From a candidate division WOR-3 bacterium (lineage in GTDB: Bacteria; Hydrothermota; 32-111), in the NCBI GenBank assembly GCA_037481815.1, contig JBBFKX010000001.1, positions 672,001 through 736,000 on the forward strand: DNA of 64,000 nucleotides. The letters run 5' to 3'. A program made the translations under genes and the position numbers. The stretch's first letter is position 1. Every line of letters starts with the position of its first letter. Positions 44,701 through 62,069 of this stretch are shown piece by piece. The notes under the pieces are model-generated. The model made no database searches. It was not told the origin of the DNA and saw only the letters and a list, made by a program, of their open reading frames with translations.

Positions 44701-45602
44701 GGACTATGAATATGGACAACTCAGAAGTTACAAAAATAGATGTAACCGCACTTGTTCTCCCACAGCAGGTTGATCTTGTTACTTCTGCTTGCACATTCAA
44801 CGATGCTAAAGATAGTGTGACGCTTGTTTGGAAGAAGAACCCATTGAATGACTTTGTTACAAAATACATTGTCTACAGATCACAGGATGCAAACTTCTAT
44901 GCTACTTCAAAAGATTCTGTGTTAACAACAACAGACACAACCGCAAAATTTGTCATACCAAACACAAAAGGTCTCCATTACTTCAAAGTCAGAGCGGTTA
45001 ACTATCAGGGTTACTCATTCAACACATCTGATGAGGTTTATGTTGTTAACAACACAACAACAGCACTCAACACTGTTTCACTTGTTGCAACACAAAAAGG
45101 TACAGATGTTTACCTTGAATGGGAGAAAGAAGGTATAAACAGTGGTTCAGCATGGGAAGTTTCAAGAGCGAAAGATAATGGGCAGTTTGAGGTTGTTGGT
45201 TCTGTTGATTTCAAATCAACAAAATTTGTTGATAACAAGATCTCTGAAAACGGAACCTACACATACAAACTTGACCTTGTAAAACTCGGTGGTGAAAAGG
45301 TAACATATGGACAGGCCTCAATTAAATTCTTCAATCCTTATGTGTTCAAACTCTATCAACTTGACAAGAATCCAGTCAAAGGTAGTTTCAATATAAACTA
45401 CTCAATCGATAGAGAGGACTATGTTACTTTGAAAGTGTACTCAGTTACAGGTCAGGTTGTTGCCACACTTGCAAACGGAGTTATGACTCCAGGTAGATAC
45501 ACAGCAAAAGTTGATGAAAAGAAACTTTCAGCAGGTATCTACTATGTTGTTCTAACTCAGGGAACAAAGAAAGATAATATCAAGGTTACAGTTTTAAAGT
45601 AA
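41787..45602 (+). CDS. Secreted M6-family (immune inhibitor A-like) metalloprotease with C-terminal T9SS type-A-like domain
   Basis: Signal peptide + AVPA..QPDG..GDEH propeptide; DYDGDGDGYVD; HESFH..APDLYD; WSLM.GGSW; EYFFIENR; C-terminal VYSVTGQVV..LSAGIYYV..K; AGGAGG RBS. Confidence 0.92.
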   Translation: MKKLFTFTLLLLFVAVAVFAVPARPGFRVFEQPDGTKFIAQLKGDEHFHFAETEDRYAIIRNSEGWWTYANKVDGILVPSLFIVGKDNPPFPKGLRPDPDKVAALPGNEFKMINWTKLFNINDEAATKAGYTDRKFLVILGCFDDSSFLGTVKPATRWDINSWTLRSGFTSGRYGGTAHDSLYWDSVFFSNSPGSFKTFFKEISFGRWLIDTACHVQGPVSSGKTYGAYGDGAELTYMQDIIYRSSGRMKTTPHRADQNAYSDYDGDGDGYVDHWIVVRAGGEQSATGSLKDMWATKYTTTVSTTTGATVRNPTNAGELTDSLANTWTLTQLLDTQFVRSYTMGIGVHAHESFHAFSAPDLYDYGYEGEPADVWSLMDGGSWTGDGIQSGSRPPHPGAMLQYSFRGYPESGDTTAGFMPDDWDQLITTNGRYFVVGLAADSSKGGPRFIMARNAAMTTAGEYFFIENRCNKGFFESCLPEHGLIIVHYDQSEKGTYYNDGPDYYTYWVEQRGFDPQLHVTYPNDTIYRDAGQAPYFAGDDYEFTNLTKAGANVNGSTTNFGPYIISISAPGDTMWFTIDNATVPATASFAYKSHTVYDTLTNYSNNNGTVDPDEVVDLVIAVKNVGGNASSVAAKLRHKYGLVTVLDSTANYGTINSLATVSNTGDVFRIKVKPGCPTDTILFFTLYFTSSNGSNEAEFGIKLNSTPLVYTTTLRTSVSSSLTDAAGIDLMYFPDINDWLFMAAGTGLGNFMGTGAKKMFILDLSTWGTVIKDSFVYAGANYLMCMDHDAQGRIWYSSGDSAYCYDISSGSPVNVGRLRWPNSDYAGTVMKRVRGITFDNNDSLYGYWQTYGTFEESIYGVRKTLGTLSTIWDRAALLDGTSYGGKWNNGRGIEWDGTCLWSVNIFENLIFRKYPINNPSVPSNLEFKTINTISCPSVVGSYPAYDIALQAVSSDGVTPAVPYAFGNKYYMWTMNMDNSEVTKIDVTALVLPQQVDLVTSACTFNDAKDSVTLVWKKNPLNDFVTKYIVYRSQDANFYATSKDSVLTTTDTTAKFVIPNTKGLHYFKVRAVNYQGYSFNTSDEVYVVNNTTTALNTVSLVATQKGTDVYLEWEKEGINSGSAWEVSRAKDNGQFEVVGSVDFKSTKFVDNKISENGTYTYKLDLVKLGGEKVTYGQASIKFFNPYVFKLYQLDKNPVKGSFNINYSIDREDYVTLKVYSVTGQVVATLANGVMTPGRYTAKVDEKKLSAGIYYVVLTQGTKKDNIKVTVLK

Positions 45603-45641: not shown

Positions 45642-46781
45642 TTATTTATAAACTTTTTCAAGAATCTCTTTTGAAATTTTTTCCCAGGTAAAATTCGAAG
45701 AAAAATTTCTCAAGTATTCCCTATCCCATCTGTATTCAACCGCTTCAACAAGTTTTTTTACAAATTCTTGCTTATCCCTTTTTTCAACGATAAAACCTGT
45801 TTTATAATCCTTAACAACTTCTCTTACACCACCGACATCAAATGAAACAACAGGAACACCAGAAGAAAACGACTCAAAAAGTATCGTCGGGAACCCTTCT
45901 GATCTACTTGTTATCAAGGTCAAAAATGCTTTTCTATATATATCTTTCATTCTAATTCTTTCAACAAAACCCTGAAAACCAACATAATCGTTTATTTTAT
46001 ATTCATCGATTCTTTTTAAAACCTGCTCCTTCAATGGCCCATCTCCAACGATTATCAATTTAAAATCTTTTCTTATTTTTAAAAACTCATTAAAAATATC
46101 TATCAACAATAGAGGATCTTTTACCTCTGTTAACCTCCCAACAAAAAGAAGATTTTTTGACTCATCTGTAGATTCGAATATCTCTTTTATGCCGTTTCTG
46201 ATAACAATTGAGTTTTCGATTTTAAAATCATTTTTAAGAATCCTTTGCATTTTTTCACTAACAACTATAACCTTTTTTGATTTTTTAAGATAATAGTTTA
46301 CCAGGAACTTATCAAACGGTCTTCTGTTTATAAACATGAGATCAGACCCATGTATAGTGACAACAAAAGGGATTTTTTTTAACCTTGAAAGGATATACCC
46401 GGAAAATCCATCTGGGAAAAGTGTATGGGAATGGATAATATCAAATCGCTCGTCTTTTGTTTTTAAATAAAGTAGAAAAGAAATTAAAAAGGAGTCAAAA
46501 TGTTTAGAAAATACTTTTGGATATTTTAAAAATTTAAAATCATTTTTATCTTGTTTTATTTTGAACTTTTCTAATATTTTTTCCCTTTTACTGGTAAAAA
46601 AAATCAAAAATATTTCTTTTATTGAAGGGTTTATTCTAACTGGAACAAAAACTTTTAAATCGCATACTTTCTTCAGTTCTTCTACTTGTTCATAAATATA
46701 TATCCCTGTTGAAGGTGTTAACCGTTGGGGTGAATCTGGCCAGAGATGGGAGATCAAAAGGACTTTTTTATCCTTTCTCAT
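45642..46781 (-). CDS. Glycosyltransferase family 4 (TuaC-like)
   Basis: IIHSH..FPDG, TIHGSD, FVGRL..K, SEGFPTILFE, VGGVREV. Confidence 0.9.
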   Translation of the reverse strand: MRKDKKVLLISHLWPDSPQRLTPSTGIYIYEQVEELKKVCDLKVFVPVRINPSIKEIFLIFFTSKREKILEKFKIKQDKNDFKFLKYPKVFSKHFDSFLISFLLYLKTKDERFDIIHSHTLFPDGFSGYILSRLKKIPFVVTIHGSDLMFINRRPFDKFLVNYYLKKSKKVIVVSEKMQRILKNDFKIENSIVIRNGIKEIFESTDESKNLLFVGRLTEVKDPLLLIDIFNEFLKIRKDFKLIIVGDGPLKEQVLKRIDEYKINDYVGFQGFVERIRMKDIYRKAFLTLITSRSEGFPTILFESFSSGVPVVSFDVGGVREVVKDYKTGFIVEKRDKQEFVKKLVEAVEYRWDREYLRNFSSNFTWEKISKEILEKVYK

Positions 46782-47862
46782 ACTCTATAAGTTTTATTTT
46801 CAGATCTTTATCTATATTTTTTTGTTCGATATCCCTTTCATCCTTGACTATGAATTGTTGAAATTTATCGATTGTTTTTATATGAACCAATTTCCTTTCT
46901 CCATCAAAAACACCAAATATGTTATGTTTTTCAGGTGAAGGGAAAGGTCCATCAACACCACCAGTTTCAAAATAGATTTCAAAAACTTTTTTCCTCTCTT
47001 TAAAAAAACCTTTTTCAACAAACTCCCTTTTTAATTTTCCATCAATATTTTCTGGAACTTTTATTCCAACAGAATCGAGGAGTAAGGGTAGAAAATCTAC
47101 AGTTGAATGGAGAGAGTTTTCTTCTTCCTTTTTGTTTTCTCCATATTTTATTACAAAATTATGTAAGGTATAATTGTAAAGAAAAACTCCATAAGCCCTT
47201 TCACCAAAAATCTCACCTGTTGATGCACCATGATCTGAAAGAATCCAAATATTGCTATTTTCATTCAATTTTTTTTCTTTTAACAGAGAAAGGATTTTTT
47301 TTAAATACTCTCCAGAAATTCTTATATCATTTTTGTATCTTTCTCTATTTTTTTCAAGATTGTTGAAATATTCTTCGGATCTATCATTATAAACATTTAA
47401 AACATTGTTAACAAGTGATGTATGTATTTTTGAATAGTGTAGATATAGAAAAAATGGTTTATATTCTTTCATTTTCTCAGCGTTTTCTTGGACAAACTCT
47501 ATATGTTTTTTTTCAACATCCTGATTGTATTCATCGTGTAGAGTATAAACATCAAAACCTCTATTAGCCATAACAACTGGACTTGGAATGTTCGCAAAAG
47601 TTGAATAACCATTTTCTTTCAAATACTGTGGTATTATCTTAACATTCTGTTTTAGATCGTTAGGTCTGAAATATCCATTAACACCATTATTTTTCGGATA
47701 AAGCCCCGTAAAAATCGTATGCATTGAACCGATTGTATATGGTGATGCTGTATAGAACCTGTTGTACCAGATCGATTTTGAAAACAGTTCCTGATACATA
47801 AAATCTTCTTTTACAAAATCGTACCTTGCTCCATCTATCACTATTAAAATTATGTTCTTCAT
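46768..47862 (-). CDS. Sulfatase/alkaline-phosphatase-superfamily hydrolase or transferase (Thr nucleophile)
   Basis: IVIDGARYD, SPYTIGSMHTIFTG, FLYLH..H, SDHG; no signal peptide. Confidence 0.8.
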   Translation of the reverse strand: MKNIILIVIDGARYDFVKEDFMYQELFSKSIWYNRFYTASPYTIGSMHTIFTGLYPKNNGVNGYFRPNDLKQNVKIIPQYLKENGYSTFANIPSPVVMANRGFDVYTLHDEYNQDVEKKHIEFVQENAEKMKEYKPFFLYLHYSKIHTSLVNNVLNVYNDRSEEYFNNLEKNRERYKNDIRISGEYLKKILSLLKEKKLNENSNIWILSDHGASTGEIFGERAYGVFLYNYTLHNFVIKYGENKKEEENSLHSTVDFLPLLLDSVGIKVPENIDGKLKREFVEKGFFKERKKVFEIYFETGGVDGPFPSPEKHNIFGVFDGERKLVHIKTIDKFQQFIVKDERDIEQKNIDKDLKIKLIEYEKG

Positions 47863-48608
47863 TTTTTATTTTTTAGCAAATTTTTATATATAACTTCTCT
47901 TGCGTATGAAAGATCCTCAAAAGTATCGACCTCAGTCCATAAAAGTCCATCAGTGTAAACTGGTTTGAAAAAAACTCCTTCTTTTGATATGTCAACGAGA
48001 AGATCTTCATAGTATTTACCTTTCGCTGAAAAATCAAATGAATCATAATGTTTCATCATAGCTTTTATTGAGTCAAATTTCACCATCGTTATACCGATAT
48101 ACTCACCAACAGAGTCCTCTATTCTATTTTTTTTGGACAGAGAGGAAACATATCCATCTTTTAACAGAACCTTCATCTCCTCCTCTCCGAGAGTTTTAAC
48201 ATTGTCTACAACAATACAGTTTTCATAGTGAGTTAGAACTTTTTTGAGAATTTCACCATCAAAAATAATATCACTGTTAAAAATTATAAAATCTTTTGTT
48301 ATATGTGGTAATGCTGTAAAAAGTGTATAACAGTTGTTATATTCTTTATATTTTTTGTTTTCAACAAAAGTAAAATTTATATCTTTAAACTTTTTTCTTA
48401 AACTTAAAACATAACTTTTTAAAACAGAAAATTGGTGACCTCCAACGATCAAAATATCTTTTAATCCATTTTTATAAATATTTTCTATAATAAGGCCTAT
48501 GAAAGTTGTTCTTCCGACTCTTAACATCGTCTTTGGTTTTTTTTCCGTATCTGGCTTCAACCTTTCGCCTGTTCCTGCTGCAAGAATAACTGCTTGAAAA
48601 TTTTTCAT
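47859..48608 (-). CDS. LicC/PntC-like cytidylyltransferase (NTP transferase)
   Basis: LAAGTGERL..KPK, N..Y..YNN..TL, NSD, EEEMKV, GEYIGI, YYED, WTEVDTFEDL. Confidence 0.85.
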   Translation of the reverse strand: MKNFQAVILAAGTGERLKPDTEKKPKTMLRVGRTTFIGLIIENIYKNGLKDILIVGGHQFSVLKSYVLSLRKKFKDINFTFVENKKYKEYNNCYTLFTALPHITKDFIIFNSDIIFDGEILKKVLTHYENCIVVDNVKTLGEEEMKVLLKDGYVSSLSKKNRIEDSVGEYIGITMVKFDSIKAMMKHYDSFDFSAKGKYYEDLLVDISKEGVFFKPVYTDGLLWTEVDTFEDLSYAREVIYKNLLKNKK

Positions 48609-48610
48609 CT

Positions 48611-50110
48611 TTACTCCCTATCTTTCAGATAACCTAATCTTCTCAATTCCTCTTTTACAAATTCATCATCAACTTTTACTTCCTCTTTTTTCCTTTTTAC
48701 CAGAAAATCGTAAGAATCTATCATTGTTGTTTCAGAGAATTTATAGAGAGGTTTTCCATCAAAATCTTTTGCCAATGGCAGGTTTAAAAAAGAAAGAAGT
48801 GATGGAAGAAAATCGTATATTGTTGAGTTTCCAATATTCCCCTTAAATTTCAGACCTTTATCATAAATCATAAAAATCCCTGTCTTGTCATGATCAGCAG
48901 ATCTTTCAATATCGTTAACATCAACAAGGGAAAGAAAATCAAAATAATCCGTTCCAATAAGAACTTTAAGGTTTGAAAGATCCTCCTCTTTAAACTTACC
49001 TTTGTCAAACTGAGTAACCTTTAAAAAAATTCTTCCACTCTCATCTTTTTCAACAACTTCAAAAAATCTTTCTCCTGAGGGTTTAATTATTATGTTTTTA
49101 AAGAAACCGATAAGATTTTCTGGATCCAATCCACTATTCTCTTTTACAACGATAACAGAGTTTAACCCGACAAAATAGATTTCAACTTTTCCAAGAATAT
49201 TTGTTTTTTCAAGAAAACTTTTCTGTTTTAGAGACAATGTTTTAAAACTCCCCTCTCTTATAGGTTTCATTCCGTGATCCGAGATTATGAAAAGAGATGA
49301 ATTTTTATTGTTTTCATATATTGTTCGTAAACTGTTGTCTATCTCTATGTATGCCTTTAAAAGAAAATCTCCATATTTTTTTCTTTCTTCATCAGAAACT
49401 TCGGGGAAATTTTCTCTGTCCGAATATTTCCAGAAATAGTGTGCTGCAGAATCTGACAAAGGAATGAAGAAAAACGATACATCGGTTTTAAAATTTTTTA
49501 CAAGATTCAAAAAAAGTGATAGATTTATCCTGTTCAAAAAAATTAATCTTTTAAAAAGTTTTAATTTTTTATCGTAAAATTTTTCAACCAACATATTAGA
49601 TGAAAGTTGTGTCAATGTTAAAAAATCCACTCCGATTTTTTTTAACTTAAAAAACAAGAATATATTTTTTAAAAGATTTCCTTTTTTCTTTCCTCTGAGT
49701 TCCATTATCGGAGAAAGATATGAAGGGAAAGTCCTGTTATCCCTAGCCATCGAGCATGGTATAGTGAACCCACCATAATTTTCAGGTGGCCAGGTCAACT
49801 CCCATCCAAAAGTTCCAACAGAGTATCCATAATGGTTCAAGATTTCAAACCATCTTGCTGAAACTATATCCTGCTGTAGATTAAAAAATGATAAAATTTT
49901 ATGTTTTTCTGCTTTTTTTCCAGTTGCTAGCGATGTCCATATTGTTGGTGAGATTGGAACCCTTGTATCCTGCTCAACAGAATCCATATAAGAGTATATC
50001 GAGTTTTCCTTCAAAAACTTAAAAAATGGCAGTTTACCCTCTTCTATAAATCTATCTATCAGAGTGAATGTCCCACCATCTATTCCAACAATAATAACTT
50101 TTTTCTTCAT
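48611..50110 (-). CDS. Alkaline-phosphatase-superfamily (nucleotide pyrophosphatase-like) protein
   Basis: GIDGGT, PISPTIWTSLATG, D..AHYFW, SDHG, ADH, terminal LRRLGYL. Confidence 0.85.
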   Translation of the reverse strand: MKKKVIIVGIDGGTFTLIDRFIEEGKLPFFKFLKENSIYSYMDSVEQDTRVPISPTIWTSLATGKKAEKHKILSFFNLQQDIVSARWFEILNHYGYSVGTFGWELTWPPENYGGFTIPCSMARDNRTFPSYLSPIMELRGKKKGNLLKNIFLFFKLKKIGVDFLTLTQLSSNMLVEKFYDKKLKLFKRLIFLNRINLSLFLNLVKNFKTDVSFFFIPLSDSAAHYFWKYSDRENFPEVSDEERKKYGDFLLKAYIEIDNSLRTIYENNKNSSLFIISDHGMKPIREGSFKTLSLKQKSFLEKTNILGKVEIYFVGLNSVIVVKENSGLDPENLIGFFKNIIIKPSGERFFEVVEKDESGRIFLKVTQFDKGKFKEEDLSNLKVLIGTDYFDFLSLVDVNDIERSADHDKTGIFMIYDKGLKFKGNIGNSTIYDFLPSLLSFLNLPLAKDFDGKPLYKFSETTMIDSYDFLVKRKKEEVKVDDEFVKEELRRLGYLKDRE

Positions 50111-50258
50111 AATTTTACATTATACAAACATAGAAATTTTATTCAAGTTAAATTTAGAAAAATAAAAAATACTTAAAAGTTTTCATTTTTTATATAAATA
50201 ATTATTGACACAATTTGAATATTAAAATATTATTTAAAAAATAAAATCAAAAGGGATT

Positions 50259-50879
50259 ATGATCTATAGGAAGTTAAAAGAGGTTGCTAAAGAAATATAT
50301 GTTGGACTAAATGTAAAAAATTATCTTGATAAAACCGAGATTGCACAAAACGATTCAGAAAAAAAGATTACACTTTATATCCCCATTATAAATATTTCCA
50401 ACATAACAGAGGATGGATTCTTTGTAGGGGATTTTAAAAGATTAAAAATCGTTTCCCAAAGAGAGATATTAAAGTATACTGTAAAGGAAAAAGACGTGAT
50501 TTTTAACTCCCGCGGTACAGCTTTAAAAGTTGCAATAGTCGATGAAGAACGGGCAGGTTACATCATAACATCAAATATGATCGCTGTCAGTTTGCTTGAT
50601 GAATTTATCACTCCCGAAATTTTCGAATTTTATTTAAGAAGTGAAAAGGGTTTTTATGAATTGATGAAATTATCTTTTTCTTCAAAAAATTCTATCAGAT
50701 TAACTAAGGAAAGTGTTGAAGAACTCAAAGTACCAATCTTAAAACCTAAGGAGTTAGTCAGTTTATCTGGATTGTTGAACGACTATAAAATAATTAAAAG
50801 CATAGCAAAAAATATATCAGCTGATCTTGATAAAATGTCATATTATATTATGAAAATTTTAAATAAAGATGAAAAATAA
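50259..50879 (+). CDS. hsdS: Half-size type I R-M specificity subunit (single TRD)
   Basis: KLKEVA.I..G, IPIINISNI, YTVKEKDVIF..RGT..KVAIV, P.IFEFYLRS, LTKESVEELKVPI then a helix; preceded by TTGACA-17-TATTAT (50205-50233). Confidence 0.72.
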   Translation: MIYRKLKEVAKEIYVGLNVKNYLDKTEIAQNDSEKKITLYIPIINISNITEDGFFVGDFKRLKIVSQREILKYTVKEKDVIFNSRGTALKVAIVDEERAGYIITSNMIAVSLLDEFITPEIFEFYLRSEKGFYELMKLSFSSKNSIRLTKESVEELKVPILKPKELVSLSGLLNDYKIIKSIAKNISADLDKMSYYIMKILNKDEK

Positions 50880-52335
50880 AAGTTTTGATAATCAAAAATT
50901 GAAAATAGAATGCCTTAAAAAATATAGAAAAATACTTAGTAAGGTTAATAAATCAAGATTTTCGTTTTTGGGGAATTTAGGTTCAGATTTTTTAAAACTC
51001 TTATTCATAAAATATATTTACTTGAATGAAGAAAATATCAAAAAATTTATCATTTTAGATGAGGGGCTTTCATGGAAAAACCTTTCTGAGATAAAAGAAG
51101 ACGTAGGAATATTTATTGATAAGATTTTCGAAAATTTAGCTAAAAATAATGAAAATTTATCAGTTTTTTCCTTTCTCGAAAATTTTTCTGAGCAAAAACA
51201 TCGAAGAGTTCCTTTTGACAAAAGATTTTCATTAAAATCAAGAGAAAAAATTTTAATCGATTTCATTGAGGAGTTAAACAAAGATTCATTTTTAAATCAA
51301 AAAAATACATTTAACTTATTTGTTAAAGAGATAATCACCCATCAACAGCATTTTTACTATAGAATAAATGGATTAAAATATAGAGAAAATACTAATGAAG
51401 TATTGAATTATTTAAATAGATATATCGAACAAAAAATAAAAAACAAAGAAGATCTATCTTTTTACATCCCCTATTTTAAAAGAAGTGAGTTCTATTTTGA
51501 TATAATACTAAAAGTTGCTACCCAAAAAAGTACTTTAAAAATTTACTGCAACGAATTTTGGGGGGAAGCACCTGCTTTGACAATGTTGAAACTTTTTTTG
51601 AATGGAATTTACAATGTTGAAATCAGAGCAAAGAAAGAACCATGGTTTGTTGATTTTTTTAAAGATGAAAAAGAAGATTTAAAAAAATATGACCTTGTTT
51701 TTGTTGATATGATTGATGAAAAATATGATATAGATGAAGAACAATATCGAAAGTTAAAAGAAAAAATTGAAACGGATTTAAAACTCTACTTAGATTCAAA
51801 AAATATAATATATTCTTTTCTTCTTGATAGTTTAAATGAAAAAGGGGTTCTTATTCTGCTCACCAACTACAATTTTCTAACCGTTTCTGGAAGTAAAAAG
51901 GAAGTGAGAAAATTTTTAGTTGAAAACAATTATCTTGATGAGGTTATATCGATATATGGGTTTTTAAAATCGCCTGTCGGGTATGATCCCGTTATAGTTC
52001 TTGTTGATAAAAACAGAGAGAAAAACAGAAAGGTAACATTTGTTGATCTTGAAAGAGTGGTTACTAAGTTGTCACAGAAAAATAAAAGTGAAGAAAAAAA
52101 TATTTTGAATGAGAATCTTGATATATTAAAAGATATAGAGTACGCAATGGTTCAAAAAAAGAATGAAGATATAAAAGAGAATGATTACAACTTTAATGTA
52201 TTCAAATATCTTTCTTATCTGCCTCAAGATTACAATGAAGCATTAGAGGAAATTGCTAAAAGGTTAAATGGAACAACAGAAGAATTTCAAAAAAGATTGA
52301 ATGAATTTTTGATAAAAATAAAAAAATTGAAATAA
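50869..52335 (+). CDS. HsdM-like protein with degenerate SAM-binding and catalytic motifs (pseudo-methyltransferase)
   Basis: HsdM scaffold recognisable (LLFIKY..W..L..IDKIFENL; CNE..L..LFLNGI; L..KGVL..FL..G..KEVRKFLVENNYLDEVI; IKENDYNFNV.KY), but motif I reads YIPYFKRSEF and motif IV reads VFVDMID; ORF uninterrupted. Confidence 0.72.
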   Translation: MKNKSFDNQKLKIECLKKYRKILSKVNKSRFSFLGNLGSDFLKLLFIKYIYLNEENIKKFIILDEGLSWKNLSEIKEDVGIFIDKIFENLAKNNENLSVFSFLENFSEQKHRRVPFDKRFSLKSREKILIDFIEELNKDSFLNQKNTFNLFVKEIITHQQHFYYRINGLKYRENTNEVLNYLNRYIEQKIKNKEDLSFYIPYFKRSEFYFDIILKVATQKSTLKIYCNEFWGEAPALTMLKLFLNGIYNVEIRAKKEPWFVDFFKDEKEDLKKYDLVFVDMIDEKYDIDEEQYRKLKEKIETDLKLYLDSKNIIYSFLLDSLNEKGVLILLTNYNFLTVSGSKKEVRKFLVENNYLDEVISIYGFLKSPVGYDPVIVLVDKNREKNRKVTFVDLERVVTKLSQKNKSEEKNILNENLDILKDIEYAMVQKKNEDIKENDYNFNVFKYLSYLPQDYNEALEEIAKRLNGTTEEFQKRLNEFLIKIKKLK

Positions 52336-52488
52336 ATAAAAGACCAGTACATCCTTCACATTTTAAGATAAAATAAAAGATAAAAAACTGAATGTATCTA
52401 TTTTAATCTATAAAGTTTATTTTTACCGAAATTAGTTAGGTATATATTAAATTATAAAACATTCTTTTAGAATATTTTAATATTCATA

Positions 52489-52516
52489 TTGACTTTTTTG
52501 TATTTTATGATATAAT
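52489..52516 (+). promoter_or_regulatory. sigma70 promoter of the MoxR operon
   Basis: TTGACT-16-TATAAT with extended TG. Confidence 0.72.
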
Positions 52517-52582
52517 ATTATCGGTTGGAGAAACTACAAACAGCAGTTCTAAACAAAAACGGAAACAAAAAGGGGGGTTATA

Positions 52583-53983
52583 ATGGAAACGTGTGTTAAG
52601 ATGGCTGACTACTTTTCAGGTTTTCTTGAAGAACTTGGAATTTTTGGTTACACGAATCTGGAACTACCAATAATAATTACTTTAGCAACACAAGATCCAA
52701 TACTTTTCGTTGGAACACATGGAACCGCTAAAACGATTCTCTGTAAAAGAATTGCTGAAACACTTTCTTTAAAATATCATTGTTACGATGCTTCAAAAGT
52801 CCTATTTGAAGATATTTTGGGATTTCCAAATCCAAATTCACTCAGAGAGGGGAAAATTGAGTATATAAGTACTCCGATTTCAATATGGGATAAAGAATTT
52901 ATTCTTATCGATGAAATCTCAAGAGCAAATTTTCAAACTCAAAGTAAATGGCTTGAAATTATTAGATCAAAAAAAATCATGGGTTTGGAAATTAAAAATC
53001 TAAAATACATTTTCGCTGCTATGAATCCCCAAAATTATGTTGGTACATTTGAAATCGACAAAGCACTTTTAGGAAGATTTTCGATGATCGTAGAAATACC
53101 CGATTTAAAATGTATGGATGATAATACCATAAAAAAAATTATAACTACCATACATTCAGATGATGCCAGAGGATTTATAAGAAACAGACCAGAATTTAAA
53201 AGCTCAAATTTTAAAAAGAATTTAGAAAATATAATAAACAAAATAAAAAATGATTTTTATAATAAAAAATATTTTGACATCTCAATAAATTTTGTTCAGA
53301 TTTTAATCAAATTGCTATTAGAAGAAAATATTGAAATAGATGGAAGACGTGCTGGAATGATATTTAGAAATGTTCATAGCGCAATATCTATTTATGACAA
53401 CGATTTTAAAGATAAACAGTTTAAAAATATCTTGAGCTGGATCTCTTTATATACAATCCCTTCGTTTGATAAAAAAGAAAAAGAAAAAATAAAAATTTGC
53501 ATTAAAAAGAGCACAGATATTTTAATCGATAAAAAAAATAAATATTACTTTTTCATCAAAAAAAATATCTTCTCTACATTAAATGAGTTTGCTTCTAATT
53601 ACAATAACCTTCAAAATGAAGAAAAAGAGGAGTTCTTTCTAAAACTTCTTGAATATTATCAGGAGTTAAAAAACGAAAAAGATATTGAAAAAATTCTTGA
53701 AATTTATCAGATCTCTTTTTTCCTTGAAAATTTTGTTGAAAACGAGCTAACCAATGGTAACGAGAAAATAGTGGAAATGTTTCAAATGGTTCAAAAACCT
53801 TTTTTATTTCCTAATCAAAAAAATTTTTTCAAAATACTTATTGTATTGAACCAGAAAGAGAAGTATAAAATCAATTACTTTATTGTTACTATATTAAGTA
53901 ATCTTGATCTCCAAAACGATAACGATATTATTGAACTTTATTATATTTCATTAAAATCTATGGAGGTAAACCATGCTCGTTAA
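52583..53983 (+). CDS. MoxR-family AAA+ ATPase with C-terminal helical extension
   Basis: Walker A GTHGTAKT, Walker B ILIDEISRA, sensor-1 AAMNP, R-finger DKALLGRF, sensor-2 DGRR. Confidence 0.88.
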   Translation: METCVKMADYFSGFLEELGIFGYTNLELPIIITLATQDPILFVGTHGTAKTILCKRIAETLSLKYHCYDASKVLFEDILGFPNPNSLREGKIEYISTPISIWDKEFILIDEISRANFQTQSKWLEIIRSKKIMGLEIKNLKYIFAAMNPQNYVGTFEIDKALLGRFSMIVEIPDLKCMDDNTIKKIITTIHSDDARGFIRNRPEFKSSNFKKNLENIINKIKNDFYNKKYFDISINFVQILIKLLLEENIEIDGRRAGMIFRNVHSAISIYDNDFKDKQFKNILSWISLYTIPSFDKKEKEKIKICIKKSTDILIDKKNKYYFFIKKNIFSTLNEFASNYNNLQNEEKEEFFLKLLEYYQELKNEKDIEKILEIYQISFFLENFVENELTNGNEKIVEMFQMVQKPFLFPNQKNFFKILIVLNQKEKYKINYFIVTILSNLDLQNDNDIIELYYISLKSMEVNHAR

Positions 53984-55007
53984 CGGATTCAAATTGTTAT
54001 TCGATTTTAAAGAACATAAAACAAGTTTTTATGAGCGAATAAATGTTGAGTACCCTTTTGTTGAATGCTACAATAATCTCGAAAAGTTTCTTTTTGAAGA
54101 AAAAAACGAAATCTTTAAACCTTTTAAATTGAACCTATCGGATGGATCCATAAAATACGGAATTTTATCTTATTCTTCCATATCAGGTTTAAAAAATTTT
54201 TTAAAATCACAAAATAGTATTTACTCCATCGAAAACAAATCATTAATTTTAAGTCAGATCGAAAACGAATCATATCACATGAAAAAATCTTATCGTTTTA
54301 CAAGGGACAAATTCAAACTAGTAAACCATGGAATGTTACACAAAAAATTTTTTATGAACTACAAAGATGATATCTTTTTTTTAAAAAAGGAATCAATAGA
54401 CCCTTACAATTTTTATGACGACTCAGATTTTAATATAACATTTTCGTATAGTTTAACTGAAAAGGATTATAAAGATTTGAGGTTGAGATTGTTCAGAACT
54501 TTGTTTCTAATTCCTCCACAGAAAAATGAAAAACCAACAAAAACCTTTTGTTATAACTTTAAGAATTTTTTTTCAGTTAACAATGCCACTGAACTTCCTG
54601 AAGAAATACAGGAAGAATTTGAGAAATATGGTTTTCTCGGAAAGCCAAATTTTATCGAAAACTATTTTAACATGATAAATATAAAAATTAAGTACATCGT
54701 CAAAATTCCTGAAAAAGAAGAATTTAATAGATTACATCAGAATAAAAAAATAATAAAACCTAAACTTGAAAAAAATTTTTATTTTGTATTTTTTGATCCA
54801 TTCCCACAATATATTGAAGAAAAACTCGATAACACAAAACCAATAACGGATGTTGAACAAGCGTATTCGATCCTTATACATTCAGATTCAGGATATTATT
54901 TTAACTCAGAGAAAGATCCTTCTTTTAATCTCTTTTATGAAAAATTAGGGAAAAATAGTAAATATATATGTCTGGGAGAAGCCATACAGTTTCCAAAAAA
55001 GATTTAA
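53973..55007 (+). CDS. Hypothetical protein in the MoxR operon
   Basis: 344 aa, GGAGG RBS, overlaps the MoxR stop; no motif recognised. Confidence 0.75.
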   Translation: MLVNGFKLLFDFKEHKTSFYERINVEYPFVECYNNLEKFLFEEKNEIFKPFKLNLSDGSIKYGILSYSSISGLKNFLKSQNSIYSIENKSLILSQIENESYHMKKSYRFTRDKFKLVNHGMLHKKFFMNYKDDIFFLKKESIDPYNFYDDSDFNITFSYSLTEKDYKDLRLRLFRTLFLIPPQKNEKPTKTFCYNFKNFFSVNNATELPEEIQEEFEKYGFLGKPNFIENYFNMINIKIKYIVKIPEKEEFNRLHQNKKIIKPKLEKNFYFVFFDPFPQYIEEKLDNTKPITDVEQAYSILIHSDSGYYFNSEKDPSFNLFYEKLGKNSKYICLGEAIQFPKKI

Positions 55008-55016
55008 AGAGGTTTT

Positions 55017-56303
55017 ATGTCGAACAAAAATATCAAAAAAATATTCTCTGACATTTTAAATAAAAACTTTGAGCAATTTTCAAGTAAAATCACCTTTCTA
55101 TTTTCTAATGAAACTCCAACTGCCTGTGTAAAAAGAAATCAAAATAATTTTTTATTGGTGGTCAATAAGAATTTTATAGAAAAATACAATTTAAATTTAT
55201 TTGATATCGAATTTGTCTTACACCATGAACTCTCACATTTAAAATTCGGTGATCTCAATAAAATTTTTTCTACAAACCTTACCGAAAAAGAAAGAGTTGT
55301 TGTGAATATTGTTCTTGATATAACCATCAACTCGTTGTTAATCAAAAATCTCCCTTTTACAAAATATCTTACAATATTTGAAAAACTATACAATTTATCA
55401 AGTTTCCCCTCTTTTTTGCTTTATCCACCATCACTTTATGATTTTCACAAAAAAAAGGAAAGTTTAAAAAAATTGTTATTGGTAAAAGGTACAGATGAGT
55501 TTAATGCTGAATTTCTTCTTGATCTATACATAAAAATGTGGGATTTAAAAATTTCAGAAACTGAGGCATTTTACAGTTTAAAAGATTTTCTTGAAATTTT
55601 TGAAGATAATAATCCGATCTTTTTGGGTTCCCATGAAAAAAAAGGTTATTCAAACAGACCTCTTGATAAAATAATAAATCTGAGATTAGAAAAATCTGAT
55701 TGGAGAGATGGAAATAAAAACATCTATGAATTTTTGAAATTTATAAACAGTATGTTATCAGAAGGTGAAAATTTCGCTTCCAAAATAATCGAACAGAATA
55801 TTTTTTATAATGTGATCGATCATATCTCAAGAAAAGATATACTTTTCAATTTTTATAATGTTGAAAAATTACTCTACGAAAATAAAATTTTCAACGAAGA
55901 TTTTATAAAAAAAGACCTTTCAATTTATATCGATGTTTCCGGTTCATTTTTGAAAACCTATCCATTTATTGTTAAACTGATTTCACAGTTAAAAAATTTT
56001 TATTTTATAGAAATTTTTCAGTTCAGTTCAACGGTTGAAAAAATTAATTTTGATGACTTTTTAAAAGGAATTGTTGTAACAAACAATATGACCAGTATCA
56101 ATGCTGTTTTGAAGCATATAATTGATAACAATTACAAAAATGCACTTATCATAAGTGATGGTTTAATATCTAATCCTTCATATGACCTTATTTTTAAAAT
56201 AAAAGAAAAAAATATTAAAATATTCTCTATCATTACAAGGAAACATTCAGAAAATAAAATTAAACAATTTTCTTATAAATACTTTTTTCTTAAAATAAAC
56301 TAA
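55017..56303 (+). CDS. HExxH metallopeptidase + vWA protein (DUF2201-like architecture)
   Basis: PTACV, FVLHHELSH, NIVLDITIN; MIDAS IDVSGS..T..ISDG. Confidence 0.85.
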   Translation: MSNKNIKKIFSDILNKNFEQFSSKITFLFSNETPTACVKRNQNNFLLVVNKNFIEKYNLNLFDIEFVLHHELSHLKFGDLNKIFSTNLTEKERVVVNIVLDITINSLLIKNLPFTKYLTIFEKLYNLSSFPSFLLYPPSLYDFHKKKESLKKLLLVKGTDEFNAEFLLDLYIKMWDLKISETEAFYSLKDFLEIFEDNNPIFLGSHEKKGYSNRPLDKIINLRLEKSDWRDGNKNIYEFLKFINSMLSEGENFASKIIEQNIFYNVIDHISRKDILFNFYNVEKLLYENKIFNEDFIKKDLSIYIDVSGSFLKTYPFIVKLISQLKNFYFIEIFQFSSTVEKINFDDFLKGIVVTNNMTSINAVLKHIIDNNYKNALIISDGLISNPSYDLIFKIKEKNIKIFSIITRKHSENKIKQFSYKYFFLKIN

Positions 56304-56314
56304 AAGGAGGAGAA

Positions 56315-56764
56315 ATGAATAAAGAAGTTTCAAAATTTTCAGATGATAAAAATTTTTCAGTTACTATTGACTTAAAAGATGTATTTAAGGAACATAGGGT
56401 AAAAGTAAAGAAAAAGAAAATAAACTATGGAGGAAACATTAAATTTGGATTTAACTCATGTCAATATAAATTTTATAAAGATACATTTAAAGAAACAATT
56501 TTAAGAGCGATAGAGGGAGTTTTAACACACGAACCAGTTGATGAGAAAGAAAATTTTTTACAGGGAATCTCAGATAAACTTGAAATAAGTGTTAAATACA
56601 ACAATTTTGATGACTCTTCTGAAATAAGAATCAAAAAAATTTCTCATTCTGCTTTGATTACACTTGCATATTACCTTTTAAGGGTGATAAAAGTTTTTGA
56701 ATGTGAGGTTAAGAGTGATAGGGACCAAGGATATGGTCTTGTTGCTGTTGATGAAGCGATTTAA
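56315..56764 (+). CDS. Hypothetical protein, last gene of the MoxR operon
   Basis: 149 aa, AGGAGG RBS, lysine-rich patch RVKVKKKK. Confidence 0.72.
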   Translation: MNKEVSKFSDDKNFSVTIDLKDVFKEHRVKVKKKKINYGGNIKFGFNSCQYKFYKDTFKETILRAIEGVLTHEPVDEKENFLQGISDKLEISVKYNNFDDSSEIRIKKISHSALITLAYYLLRVIKVFECEVKSDRDQGYGLVAVDEAI

Positions 56765-56779
56765 AAAATTTTTAAAAAA

Positions 56780-56853
56780 CGGGAGCGACGAGACTCGAAC
56801 TCGCGACCTCTTGCGTGACAGGCAAGCGTTCTAACCAACTGAACTACGCCCCC
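56780..56853 (-). tRNA. tRNA-Asp (GTC)
   Basis: Reverse complement gggggcgtagttcagttggttagaacgcttgcctgtcacgcaagaggtcgcgagttcgagtctcgtcgctcccg; promoter TTGACA-17-TATTAT at 56896-56868; CCA not encoded. Confidence 0.96.
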
Positions 56854-56899
56854 GTTTAAGGGATGTTATAATATCATAGAAATAAAATTTTGTCAATAT

Positions 56900-59154
<2,255 letters not shown>

Positions 59155-59194
59155 AGTGTTAAATTATATCATAAATTCAGAGATTATCAACTAT

Positions 59195-59839
59195 CTAAAC
59201 ACCGATTTTTTCACAGAGTTTATTTAAAACACACAGACCACATTTTGGTTTTACAGGTTTACAAACATTCTGCCCCCATAAAACAAGTAATTCGTTGTAA
59301 ACTATCCAGTATTTTTTAGGTAAAACTTTCATCAGTTCGATTTCAGTTTCATAAGGGCTTTTTGTTTTTATTATTCCAAATCTGTTTGAAATCCTGTGAA
59401 CATGGGTATCAACACATATACCTTTTTTTCCGTAACCTAACGATAAAACAAGATTTGCAGTTTTTCGTCCGACACCCTTTAATTTCAAAAGTTGTTCCAT
59501 CTCATCAGGCACCTTTCCACCATATTTTTCAATTATCGTTTGAGAAACATTTTTTATCACTTTTGCTTTATTTCTATAGAATCCCGCTTTTTTTATCAGT
59601 TTTTCTATCTCGCTGTTTTCAAGTTTCACCATTTTATAAGGAGTATCTGCTACTTTGAAAAGTTTTAAAGATACCTCTTCTGTAATCTTATCTTTGGTTC
59701 TAAGCGAGATCAGAGTTGATATCAAGATTTTATAGGGAGTACTTTTTTCAAAAAGTTTACCTACAACGGGTTTTCCATATTTCTTTGTTTCCTTTAAGAG
59801 AATTTTTATAATCTTTATAAAAACTTTTTTATCCATCAA
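59195..59839 (-). CDS. nth: Endonuclease III
   Basis: LISLRTKD, HhH LKGVGRKTAN, VDTHVHR, C-x6-C-x2-C-x5-C cluster motif. Confidence 0.95.
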   Translation of the reverse strand: MMDKKVFIKIIKILLKETKKYGKPVVGKLFEKSTPYKILISTLISLRTKDKITEEVSLKLFKVADTPYKMVKLENSEIEKLIKKAGFYRNKAKVIKNVSQTIIEKYGGKVPDEMEQLLKLKGVGRKTANLVLSLGYGKKGICVDTHVHRISNRFGIIKTKSPYETEIELMKVLPKKYWIVYNELLVLWGQNVCKPVKPKCGLCVLNKLCEKIGV

Positions 59840-60717
59840 AATAACAATAAAGTTAAGGCAACATAGATAGATTCAAGCAAATATAACAATCGATAGAATC
59901 TTCTAAAATTTCTCGGGAAATTAAAATCGATATTCGATTTTAAAACTTTTATAAAATAATAGAGTTGTAGAAACATTCCAGGTAAAAAGGCAATTCCGGT
60001 ATAAATAGGAATTATTTTGAAAAATGATATCGTTAAAAAATATAGACAGGAGATAAAAAATATTGAAGTAGAAAGTATAAACGATCCTTTGATACCCAAT
60101 CTGTGTGCGATAGTGATGACATTGTTTTCTTTATCTGATTGATAATCAACATTGTAATGGTTTATATGTCCCGCTATTTCTATCAGTCCAAAGAACAGGG
60201 AAAAGAAGATAAGATCAAAAGAATAGTAACCCAAAATATATGAACCAAATATTGCAAGGAAAGGCATCGTCAGAAGATCAAGAAGAAAAGGGAAAAAAAC
60301 TCCCTTTTTAAACATAACGAGTGGATGTGTATAGAGAATCCAGCCAAGCATAAGAAAAATGAAATAGATTGTGAAATATGGATTTATAAAGAGAGAAAAG
60401 AAAATATTTGATAAAAAAAAGAACGATGAAATATAGAAAAGAAACTTTTTATCAACACCTTTAAACCTTTCTTCAAATTTCTTTTTTCTGTCCTTCAGGT
60501 CAAGCTCAAATGTTGCATAGTTGTTGTATGAAAGAACCTGCGATAAAAAAGAGAATACGGCAAGAATTCCAAAAAGTGTTTTGATGTTTATTTCAGGGAA
60601 TCCCAACCTGTATGTCGCATAGATGAATCCAGCGAAAGTTATAAAAAAATGTTGAATGTTCTCATAAGGTCGTATAGCAAAAAATAGAGATCTTAGATGG
60701 TTTTTAAGAGTTTTCAT
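59836..60717 (-). CDS. UbiA-superfamily prenyltransferase, divergent
   Basis: IRP near the N-terminus, multiple TMs, YTHP..K, DYQSDKENNVITIAHRLG; first Asp-rich motif degenerate (NNYATFELD); ATG 60717 preferred. Confidence 0.68.
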   Translation of the reverse strand: MKTLKNHLRSLFFAIRPYENIQHFFITFAGFIYATYRLGFPEINIKTLFGILAVFSFLSQVLSYNNYATFELDLKDRKKKFEERFKGVDKKFLFYISSFFFLSNIFFSLFINPYFTIYFIFLMLGWILYTHPLVMFKKGVFFPFLLDLLTMPFLAIFGSYILGYYSFDLIFFSLFFGLIEIAGHINHYNVDYQSDKENNVITIAHRLGIKGSFILSTSIFFISCLYFLTISFFKIIPIYTGIAFLPGMFLQLYYFIKVLKSNIDFNFPRNFRRFYRLLYLLESIYVALTLLLF

Positions 60718-62029
60718 TTTTAAGTATCCCTTCTGATGCAATTATACCTGATATCGCCGCTCCAACTATACCTCTTGATTTGCCAGCACCGTCACCTGCT
60801 ACAAAAATATTTTTTACATTCGTTTCAAGTTTTTCTGTGGTATTGTAAACAAGTGAATAGAATTTCACCTCAGGTGCGTATATTATATTTTCCTCTTTCA
60901 AAATCGTGTTTCCAAAAATTTTGTTAAGTTTTATCAGTGCTTCTTTTAACTCCTTAATTATCTTGTAAGGATAAGACATTCTTATATCTCCAGGTGTTAC
61001 AAGTTTTCCAACATTGAGTGTTGGCTTCACCCGATCAAACCATCTCGTTTTATCAAAAAATGTTTCCTCTTTGCTTCTTTTCTCATCAAGAAAGTCGCCA
61101 ACCCTTTGTATTATTGGCCTACCATTTCCAAGAATATTTGTTGAAATAGCTATCAATCGTCCATAAACAAAAGGATCGGTTAACGGTTCGGTCAAAATTA
61201 TTGTATCAAGAAGTGCAAAATTTGTGTTTTCAGTTTTACTGCTTTTTAAAGCATCTCCATTTACAAGAGTGAAATCATCATACCTTTCAAGTGTAACTCT
61301 GCCACCCGGATTGGTACAGAATGTTCTTAAAATGTTTCCATACTTTGATTTTATTTTGAACTTTGGGTCATAGATCACATCGGTTATAGGATACGATTCG
61401 TTTCTCATCTCAACTCTGATACCAACATCGATCTTTTTGCCGTTCGAATATGAGATGTTCAACCTATTCGAGATCTCCCTCAGCCATTTTGAACCACTTC
61501 TTCCAGGAGCCAAAATCACATATTTCCCTTCGAAACTTTCTCCTTTAGATGTCTCAAGGTTATAAAATTTATCTTTGATTTTTATATCAACTATTTCGGT
61601 TGAAAGTTTGAACTTTACTCCCTTCTTTTCAAGAAAATCTCTGAAGTTTTTTATAACATTTTTTGAAAGATCGGTTCCTATATGTCTCTGGATAGCGGGT
61701 ATGAATTCTACATCGTTTCTTTTTGCCCTTTCATCCCATTCCTTATAGAGTGTCTGGTCATCACCAAAAATCTGATCAGGTGCCCCAAATTTCAAAAATG
61801 TCTTATCGATAAACTCTATATACTCTTTTGCTTTATCTTTTGAAATCTTTAACTCATCAAGATCCATTCCAATTTCTGTTGAAAGGTTCAACTTACAATC
61901 GTTTAACATTCCACCTGAAGGAAATGGATTTTTGTCGATGATGAGAATCGAATCTTTACCCTCTTTTACAAGATTCAAGGCAGCGAAAAGACCAGCAGGT
62001 CCTGAACCAACAATTATTACTTCATACAT
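60704..62029 (-). CDS. FAD-dependent oxidoreductase (COG2509-like)
   Basis: GSGPAG, RHIGTD, APGRSG, RTFCTNPGG, YAPEVKFYS, AGDGAG.SRG. Confidence 0.85.
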   Translation of the reverse strand: MYEVIIVGSGPAGLFAALNLVKEGKDSILIIDKNPFPSGGMLNDCKLNLSTEIGMDLDELKISKDKAKEYIEFIDKTFLKFGAPDQIFGDDQTLYKEWDERAKRNDVEFIPAIQRHIGTDLSKNVIKNFRDFLEKKGVKFKLSTEIVDIKIKDKFYNLETSKGESFEGKYVILAPGRSGSKWLREISNRLNISYSNGKKIDVGIRVEMRNESYPITDVIYDPKFKIKSKYGNILRTFCTNPGGRVTLERYDDFTLVNGDALKSSKTENTNFALLDTIILTEPLTDPFVYGRLIAISTNILGNGRPIIQRVGDFLDEKRSKEETFFDKTRWFDRVKPTLNVGKLVTPGDIRMSYPYKIIKELKEALIKLNKIFGNTILKEENIIYAPEVKFYSLVYNTTEKLETNVKNIFVAGDGAGKSRGIVGAAISGIIASEGILKNENS

Positions 62030-62069
62030 AAAAGAAGATTATATCAAAAAAAAAAATGATGTAAATATT

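Follow-up and report, generated by a model that had tools for sequence, protein, structure and literature searches.

The described systems that come closest to the locus considered here are restriction-derived sensors and MoxR-vWA conflict systems. The locus itself is a six-gene islet between tRNA-Asp and a core gene in a 64,000-nucleotide stretch of a candidate division WOR-3 genome (the window; contig JBBFKX010000001.1, positions 672,001 to 736,000). It is 6.6 kb long and AT-rich, and it encodes a half-size HsdS-like protein (S), an HsdM-like protein (M*), a MoxR-type ATPase, a third component (X), a zinc peptidase joined to a vWA domain (peptidase-vWA) and a last protein of no assigned family (Y). 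Judged by its gene content, the sensor side of the islet comes closest to Ronin and its output side to the MoxR-vWA conflict systems. It is probably an undescribed wiring of a conflict/defence system, in which S/M* is apparently joined to the ATPase-protease module through a shared DNA control site. As read from the sequences, the new part of the locus is the dead S/M pair, which a second genus, with proteins 21-39% identical, also has linked to the same core. A literature search, with subscription-only journals and one paper that names MoxR, HsdS and HsdM once each (PMC10354927) outside its scope, found no description of HsdS/HsdM linked with MoxR-vWA. PADLOC does not recognise the islet system and has no model for X, peptidase-vWA or Y.

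The Ronin system of E. coli ECOR55 contains hsdS and hsdM without hsdR, senses Ocr, ArdA and Aop1, and does so with a methyltransferase function that is dispensable, according to the available part of its description (10.1101/2023.04.06.535777). Ronin is proposed there to be a sensor of anti-restriction proteins that is coupled to a separate effector, and the islet can be likened to it on the sensor side: S and M are both present, hsdR is absent, and the genome contains no full type I system. The two differ in the state of these proteins, since the Ronin HsdM keeps its catalytic motif in the account available, whereas M* lacks motifs I and IV and S is half-size. They also differ in what follows. 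The Ronin effector is the 61-aa membrane protein RonA, whereas the genes linked to S/M* encode MoxR, X, peptidase-vWA and Y. The only plus-strand open reading frame (ORF) of at least 20 aa in the gap between M* and MoxR is 24 aa long, non-hydrophobic and overlaps the MoxR start, and by these features it does not look RonA-like; no clear membrane helix occurs among the six islet proteins. Finally, Ronin is described as coupled by sequestration, whereas coupling in the islet would apparently run through a palindrome at the promoters.

The second half of the islet resembles the MoxR-vWA ternary conflict systems. Features shared with the accessible part of their description (PMC7159879) are a MoxR protein with intact Walker A and B motifs, a vWA protein with a metal-ion-dependent adhesion site (MIDAS), a fast-diversifying third component, peptidase domains, variable accessory or effector genes and a conserved operon frame. 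The third components given there are VMAP, iSTAND, FtsH or beta-propeller proteins, whereas X has no Pfam match. The Pfam bpMoxR profile scores 24.7 bits, which is under its cut-off of 27. Effectors of the ternary systems are fused C-terminal to the vWA domain, whereas the zinc peptidase of the islet lies N-terminal to it, and the accessible text describes no linkage to an S/M* pair derived from restriction systems (PMC7159879). A MoxR and metallopeptidase-vWA pair known from phages and bacteria agrees with the islet in both core proteins, in the HExxH-then-vWA order and in the families PHROG 1297 and 1314, as far as the available portion of that source extends (PMC7824862). Unlike the phage pair in that portion, the islet is chromosomal and without phage genes, has X between the two core genes and carries an S/M* unit upstream.

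A half-size S protein is also known. Esub1 of Streptococcus pyogenes (PDB 8VSQ/8VSR) is a half-S homodimer with two identical DNA-binding heads, which its authors regard as transcription-factor-like, and it is the target of a phage protein, according to the accessible sections of that study (PMC11754733). S and Esub1 are both about 200 aa long, with one target recognition domain (TRD) and one C-terminal helix. In the same sections Esub1 is encoded apart from any hsdM and its binding to HsdM was not demonstrable, whereas the islet S gene overlaps that of M* by 11 nt. Type I restriction-modification (R-M) systems share with the islet the homology of S to HsdS and of M* to HsdM, including a conserved C-terminal HsdM region with ENDYNFN. 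The islet is nevertheless not a type I R-M system, because the three defining features looked for gave no HsdR, no S-adenosylmethionine-binding or catalytic motifs, and one TRD instead of two. Membership in the MADS family was considered and rejected. The only match is a weak one of the AAA+ domain to mad8 (1.7e-4), a model that generic ABC ATPases also match. MADS is an eight-gene operon with an active methylase, a kinase and two ATPase-nuclease modules in the available parts of its descriptions, whereas the islet has no kinase or nuclease (10.1101/2023.03.30.534895; PMC13662399).

The S/M* pair and a palindrome at both promoters

S matches PF01420 (3.7e-6) through a single Methylase_S stretch at residues 34-160, and it matches the PADLOC model Specificity_I (3e-14), aligning with one half of S models. 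Among solved structures it is most similar to Esub1 (8VSR/8VSQ), with E = 1.2e-5 over S residues 40-175. The TRD motifs are conserved across genera, the conserved positions fall in the TRD (alignment A9), and the ratio of nonsynonymous to synonymous divergence (dN/dS) is 0.06-0.14. Between the window and G009, a genome of the second genus (g5), protein identity is 39% for S, 38% for MoxR, 29% for M*, 28% for the peptidase and 21% for X. S is thus the best conserved protein between the two genera, and it is the sole protein with a DNA-recognition domain common to both.

M* matches PF02384 (N6_Mtase, 2.4e-11), scores 36 bits against the hsdM profile TIGR00497 (cut-off 243), and aligns to solved HsdM structures over residues 319-476 only, its C-terminal third. 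In an alignment with three bona fide HsdM proteins (A6), motifs I (DPTxGSGS) and IV (NPP[FY]) are lost, as is the GEFYTP stretch; at the columns with DPT(M/C)GSGSLL and NPP(Y/F)S in the real HsdM proteins, M* has IPYFKRSEF and DMI. Its C-terminal ENDYN(L/F)N region is retained. In type I enzymes the C-terminal region of HsdM is the contact with HsdS. The dN/dS of M* (0.11-0.12) indicates purifying selection, and by its motifs and this ratio M* is catalytically dead yet maintained by selection. The initial annotation had already called this HsdM dead from the window itself. The window's genome (G000; genus g1, 1.58 Mb, 95%-complete) has no match anywhere to hsdR (TIGR00348), and no second N6_Mtase or Methylase_S match elsewhere. 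Motifs I and IV and GEFYTP are likewise missing from M* of G009 and from a second protein of that genome, M2, and the loss of catalysis would be old and retained because both of these proteins also lack motifs I and IV. M2 belongs to a second half-S/dead-M pair (S2, M2) of genus g5, which lies about 4 kb upstream of S/M* (L130:720-2649 in G009) and occurs in G012 and G013 as well. NTase-like, Bact_hydrolase, TPR and FGE-sulfatase genes stand between the two pairs.

Full-length M* was found only in G000, G002, G003, G009 and G012 among 272 genomes of the phylum, together with a fragment at a contig end in G013, and all of these genomes belong to one family. Matches in the other 17 genomes are limited to the middle and C-terminal portions of the M* profile, and they lie in frames as long as an ordinary HsdM or in pieces at contig ends. 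M* adjoins MoxR-X-peptidase/vWA in five of the six genomes that hold it, and the parts in G013 lie on two contig ends. A profile search of genome contigs with the peptidase alignment gave one locus, the G013 copy. In G009 the gene order is S, M*, a 104-aa gene, a WapI-like gene, MoxR, X, peptidase-vWA, four unassigned genes and a Bro-N/PDC-S13 gene, and G012 has the same order as far as the contig end. The 104-aa gene and the WapI-like gene, which is of an immunity family, occupy L017:6208-7401. The downstream Bro-N protein (L017:14043-14867) matches PADLOC PDC-S13 at 7e-120.

The two putative transcription units of the islet would begin at P1 and P2, which are the best plus-strand promoter matches in the region; promoter-like matches overall are not enriched (49 found vs 42 +/- 5.8 in shuffles). 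An inverted-repeat search pairs the two promoter regions with each other (50211-50240 with 52462-52491) through a common element GAATATT-NN-AATATT(C), of which the 16-bp palindrome is GAATATTNNAATATTC. Three copies lie in the islet (Table 1). Site 2 has a perfect orthologue in G002, G003 and G009 and one with a single mismatch in G012. Counterparts of site 3 occur at a similar position, with two mismatches, in G002, G003, G009 and G013. The P2 core (52462-52520) is identical in G000, G002 and G003 bar one spacer base, and the adjacent coding DNA differs by 5-19%.

The palindrome is rare. The 15-mer GAATATTNNAATATT has four strand matches in the window where 0.00 are expected (100 shuffles), and three of its four sites in the whole genome are inside the islet. 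Base composition predicts about 0.1 perfect copies of the 16-mer per genome. G000, G002, G003 and G009 each have a single one, always 2-3 nt upstream of the -35 element of the MoxR unit. The promoter that follows M* in G009 reads CGAATATTCAAATATTCG-C-TTGACA-17-TATGATATAAT, with the same layout as in the window, and the palindrome sits directly after M* in both G009 and G012. No perfect copy exists in the islet-less genomes G001, G004 and G005, nor in G013, where the M*-MoxR junction is not assembled; G006 has one perfect copy, without promoter context. Sites with at most two mismatches number 3-4 per 6-8 kb in each of five S/M*-bearing stretches. The background is six such sites in 164 kb, two of them from regions fetched for holding a site, and four cassettes without S/M* (L053, L158, L159 and L160; 54 kb) contain none.

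These observations bear on whether the islet is one system. It could instead consist of two independent modules at one variable site, an orphan degenerate S/M remnant or Esub1-like regulator next to a self-contained MoxR cassette, with an unrelated host regulator acting on the palindrome. The initial annotation had pointed out the two promoters, each of which matches the consensus at 11 of 12 positions, and had noted that they may make the halves independent. Separate strong promoters, the 247-nt gap between M* and MoxR, the absence of S/M* from most relatives of the MoxR core, and the two other genes that separate M* from MoxR in genus g5 all fit independent modules. However, the linkage is kept in both genera and in five of the six M* genomes, with the sixth split over two contigs, so that the halves identified in the window do co-occur elsewhere. 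M* also evolves under purifying selection. Both g1 promoters carry the same rare palindrome, which is found directly 3' of M* in G009 and G012 as well; this counters the independence suggested by separate promoters, and the palindrome is absent from the cassettes without S/M*. We therefore regard two independent modules as somewhat unlikely, and the two transcription units are probably co-regulated.

Table 1. Positions of the islet, its genes, promoters and palindromic sites in the window
Feature	Position	Strand	Description
Accessory islet	50156..56778		Defined by empty-site comparison with G001 and G004; identity to G003 drops inside the span
S, half-size HsdS-like	50259..50879	+	206 aa; one TRD and a C-terminal helix
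M*, HsdM-like	50869..52335	+	488 aa; without motifs I and IV; C-terminal HsdM region kept
MoxR-type AAA+ ATPase	52583..53983	+	466 aa
X, third component	53973..55007	+	344 aa; no known family; fast-evolving
Peptidase-vWA	55017..56303	+	428 aa; N-terminal HExxH zinc peptidase and C-terminal vWA/MIDAS
Y	56315..56764	+	149 aa; no assigned family
tRNA-Asp(gtc)	56779..56854	-	ARAGORN; Rfam tRNA, 71 bits; marks the right-hand islet boundary
Promoter P1 of the S/M* unit	50205..50233	+	TTGACA-17-TATTAT; 11/12 consensus; core conserved in G002 and G003
Promoter P2 of the MoxR unit	52489..52516	+	TTGACT-16-TATAAT with upstream TG; 11/12 consensus; same layout in G009
Palindrome site 1	50217..50232		GAATATTAAAATATTA; one mismatch; covers P1 spacer and five of six -10 bases; also in G002 and G003
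Palindrome site 2	52470..52485		GAATATTTTAATATTC; perfect; ends 3 nt before the P2 -35; sole perfect copy in the genome
Palindrome site 3	56210..56225		AAATATTAAAATATTC; one mismatch; lies within the 3'-terminal part of the peptidase gene, with the Y start codon 90 nt downstream

The MoxR, X and peptidase-vWA core

The MoxR protein matches AAA_3 (1e-11) and AAA_5 (1.8e-7) in Pfam, PDB entry 2r44 (4.2e-9) and phrog_1297 (1.2e-10). Its Walker A (GTHGTAKT, residue 44), Walker B (ILIDE, 107), sensor and arginine motifs are all intact, with AAMNP at residue 145 and LLGRF at 162, and it is predicted to be an active ATPase.

The peptidase-vWA protein has no Pfam match above threshold. In an alignment of 57 sequences its H70, E71 and H74 (HExxH), D101 and N105 are invariant, and so are the MIDAS residues D306-V-S-G-S310, T359 and D381, which bears out both motifs that had been noticed in the single sequence. 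The structural model has a mean predicted local distance difference test score (pLDDT) of 81.5. Its C-terminal vWA domain, which ends the protein at residue 428, with the peptidase N-terminal to it, superimposes on solved structures with Z of about 13, and Foldseek matches it to the MIDAS of NorD/MDN1. Among the matches listed, the fold matches in the PDB cover the vWA domain only. The whole model matches phage "metallopeptidase / VWA-like" proteins, including those of PBS1 and S-TIM5 (Foldseek, 5e-11 to 1e-8), and the protein matches phrog_1314 at 1e-9. A tblastn search of the protein against 50,697 phage records found none. A homologue at NCBI that is 82% identical comes from a candidate division WOR-3 bacterium.

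X and Y have no match in Pfam, PADLOC, NCBIfam or PHROG. A search of 1.84 billion representative proteins gives only six clusters for X at E <= 0.001, the ESM Atlas returned nothing for it, and its AlphaFold2 model from a six-sequence alignment has a mean pLDDT of 45.5 and is unusable. Compared by hhalign with middle proteins of other loci, X gives E = 0.0019 over 119 columns with the one at L053, at a probability of only 14.5%, and no match with the one at L095. Y keeps the C-terminus GYGLVA[VI]DEAI in all three species and has no predicted membrane helix. ESM Atlas leads for Y (0.87-0.90; AAA_21 or AbiEii-like fragments) were rejected, with structural TM scores below 0.5, and no family is named. 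The acidic tail of Y is the type of ligand that a MIDAS site could bind.

MoxR-X-peptidase/vWA is, from the comparison of these loci, a widespread three-gene core with variable partners and with relatives in phages. A metagenome scan returned 80 loci, 26 of which have a MoxR homologue and peptidase-vWA in the same order. A small gene usually separates the two, and the 19 middle proteins fall into eight mutually unlinked sequence groups. Within the phylum the peptidase profile is matched in 22 of the 272 genomes. The partners of the core include nucleases, Macro, helicase-WYL and MetK-like genes, and S/M* is best seen as an add-on because most relatives of the core do without it.

Several of these loci illustrate the range of partners. 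In G056 (L158), MoxR, a 365-aa protein and the peptidase are followed by Macro and a ClpB-like AAA protein, and the cassette adjoins Cas6. In G233 (L159) the order is MoxR, a 330-aa protein, peptidase, PDDEXK_3 and a PIF1-WYL helicase. The core of G060 (L160) is near ERCC4-NTase-HEPN and a WYL-HTH regulator, and at L053 it is followed by DUF3782-PDDEXK_10, with WYL upstream.

A diverged MetK-like gene stands directly after peptidase-vWA in 11 of the 26 loci (L042, L044, L056, L068, L073, L075, L094, L098, L100, L102 and L103). Eight aligned copies are 28-33% identical to the true MetK at L073:6670-7806, and they retain GHPDK and GGGA[WL]SGKD, with GAGDQG changed to [SAV][DN]DQ. The idea that they are dead decoys is unsupported, given that the GHPDK and GGGA[WL]SGKD motifs are kept. 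A literature search found no paper joining MoxR, vWA and S-adenosylmethionine synthetase, and it did not find the MoxR/small protein/peptidase-vWA/MetK-like cassette.

The composition of the core also allows a role outside conflict. A housekeeping- or phage-type MoxR/vWA chaperone-protease pair could mature X or Y as its client, with S/M* merely serving as its transcription factor. Such a pair would agree with the NorD-like vWA partners of MoxR ATPases among the fold matches and with the PHROG 1297 and 1314 matches, the full-length structural matches being phage proteins; phage MoxR and metallopeptidase-vWA proteins are proposed to be virion-assembly chaperones in the accessible part of the source (PMC7824862). 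Set against this, the islet is accessory (three of six genomes of the genus) and contains no enzyme client or phage structural gene, the accessory genes of its relatives are of nuclease, Macro, helicase-WYL and HEPN types, and the middle component is hypervariable. A chaperone pair with no conflict role is therefore unlikely in our view. The defence context that had been proposed for the locus stands in part: relatives of the core do lie beside nucleases, WYL, Cas6 and PADLOC candidates, but PADLOC does not recognise the system itself. We consider a conflict or defence role for the locus to be evenly balanced.

A composite two-unit reading

Our tentative preference, held at a confidence a little below even, is that the locus is an accessory islet exchanged by recombination and carrying one composite system of two units, in which S/M* regulates or senses for the MoxR-protease module. 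Unit 1 would be half-S and M*, and unit 2 would be MoxR, X, peptidase-vWA and Y. If half-S dimerises as Esub1 does, then it would show two identical TRDs and, together with M*, form a methylation-incompetent, sequence-specific DNA-binding complex. This S-dimer/M* complex may bind the palindrome at the -10 element of P1 (autoregulation), upstream of the P2 -35 and upstream of Y, and it would thereby control expression of the module. The assignment of S/M* as the palindrome binder is plausible but just under an even call. Titration or displacement of the complex would switch the MoxR-protease module on, and candidate triggers are DNA-mimic anti-restriction proteins, as in Ronin, or invading DNA that contains the site. 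Once the module is on, remodelling that MoxR drives by way of the vWA MIDAS could direct the zinc peptidase to X and/or Y as client or effector.

A more specific idea, which we offer as speculative and doubtful, is that a type I methyltransferase that lost catalysis was domesticated as an operator-binding "decoy repressor", so that phage anti-restriction or competing foreign DNA would release it as an alarm. If this is true, then the locus would represent transcriptional decoy immunity and would give the MoxR/peptidase-vWA core its first assigned input.

Several points weigh against a composite system under S/M* control. A host regulator whose gene lies elsewhere could be what binds the palindrome. 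The recognition sites of type I enzymes include a non-specific spacer of 6-8 bp, and GAA-N10-TTC or GAAT-N8-ATTC is an imperfect type I fit because the inner bases of the palindrome are conserved. These AT-rich genomes each have 2-9 sites with one mismatch, whether the islet is present or not, and so the weight falls only on the perfect and positioned copies. The region upstream of the S gene in G009 contains no site at two or fewer mismatches. Most relatives of the core occur without S/M*. Genera g1 and g5 are only two related lineages and are not independent, because they belong to one family. A neighbour within 3-4 genes matches PADLOC models in 8 of the 26 metagenome loci (generic ABC ATPases excluded), which is a raw count with no background rate set beside it; these matches include an HNH protein (PDLC04132, 4e-118), PDC-S41 (6e-271), PDC-S10, PDC-S70, WYL and a ThsC2-like HIT protein. 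Last, NorQ/NorD-type MoxR/vWA pairs are maturation chaperones and the phage versions are proposed assembly factors, as stated in the available part of that source (PMC7824862), and on these grounds the locus may have a non-defence role.

The composite reading would have consequences beyond this genome. Pairs of MoxR and peptidase-vWA are common in bacteria and phages, and here the core is tied to a sensor-like part and to a rare palindrome. If S/M* binds that palindrome, then the locus offers a tractable handle on the switching of ATPase-protease machines, a function for half-size Esub1-like S proteins, and, next to Ronin, a second case of decoy sensing that is derived from R-M but works by a different mechanism.

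Layout, distribution and exchange of the islet

The ORF list of the window contains six intact plus-strand ORFs at 50259-56764. MoxR and X overlap by 11 nt, as S and M* do, and the spacings are 9 nt between X and the peptidase gene and 11 nt between the peptidase gene and Y. GC content is 0.245-0.279 in the seven 1-kb bins of 50001-57000, 0.287-0.308 just to the left and 0.341-0.361 just to the right, and both neighbouring genes (46768-50110 and 56900-60741) are encoded on the minus strand. The islet starts where the conserved promoter region of the flanking 499-aa gene ends and reaches to the base preceding the 3' end of tRNA-Asp, which is 14 nt from the Y stop codon. An Rfam scan of 49500-57500 gave the tRNA as its sole match. 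The six proteins contain no nuclease, helicase or integrase domain by Pfam, and the islet is free of phage structural genes.

The peptidase gene occurs in five of 41 related genomes: G000, G002 and G003, which are three of the six in the window's genus, and two of another genus. All six genes have the same location in G002 and G003, where tRNA-Asp and the 499-aa gene enclose them. The sites of G001 and G004 are empty, with 89 nt and about 160 nt from the tRNA to the 499-aa gene. In G005 the position beside tRNA-Asp is taken by about 940 nt of unrelated sequence (L023:11218-12157), which is GC-richer by eye, and the tRNA-Asp site is therefore a variable hotspot. The islet is also found on contigs of three other studies, from sludge, an oil facility and one unlabelled source, in which individual contigs bridge the M*-MoxR gap and join the 499-aa gene to MoxR. 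One sequencing run labelled RNA-Seq is probably DNA and covers the islet in short pieces only.

Comparison of G000 with G003 suggests how the islet moves. Identity is 77-79% across most of the window, which is the genome baseline, and rises to 99-100% over about 48.0-63.5 kb except in the islet itself, where it is 88-95%. Between these genomes gyrB, nth and the 499-aa gene show a synonymous divergence of 0.00-0.02 and the six islet genes one of 0.21-0.59, and the Y gene of G003 is closer to the G002 copy than to that of G000. This contrast between flanks and islet, together with the relationships of Y, indicates that the islet was replaced by recombination between conserved flanks. The islet thus looks, from these alignments, to have been exchanged by homologous recombination rather than by tRNA-targeted insertion. 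It would be a defence-island-like cassette swapped between near-identical flanks in an uncultured phylum.

The position next to a tRNA 3' end, the low GC content and the phage-like relatives could instead mark a decaying, non-functional remnant of a mobile element or prophage that inserted at tRNA-Asp. Such a remnant would not be expected to show what is found here: six ORFs intact in three species, dN/dS of 0.06-0.23 over all six genes, which indicates purifying selection, and conservation of both promoters. Nor is there an integrase, a phage structural gene or an att-type direct repeat of the tRNA 3' end at the opposite islet border. We consider a decaying remnant highly improbable.

Much of what the initial annotation described in the window holds on comparison. 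Its six intact and closely set or overlapping ORFs, the AT-rich composition beside minus-strand flanks, the end of the block some 15 nt from tRNA-Asp (14 nt as measured), the absence of hsdR, nuclease and integrase, and its expectation of an accessory rather than a syntenic core block all agree with the results above. Its remark that tRNA 3' ends are common insertion sites finds no integrase or att repeat in support here, and its interpretation as a whole is partly supported.

Two further features lie outside the islet. The near-identical tract shared with G003 (48000-63500, L014) is about 15 kb long, surrounds gyrB and tRNA-Asp and is broken only by the islet; at 99-100% identity between species that otherwise differ at the 77-79% level, it indicates recent inter-species recombination. 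Further left, a plus-strand ORF of 1271 aa (41787-45602) coincides with a stretch of GC content 0.37-0.41 (42-45 kb), which is above its surroundings.

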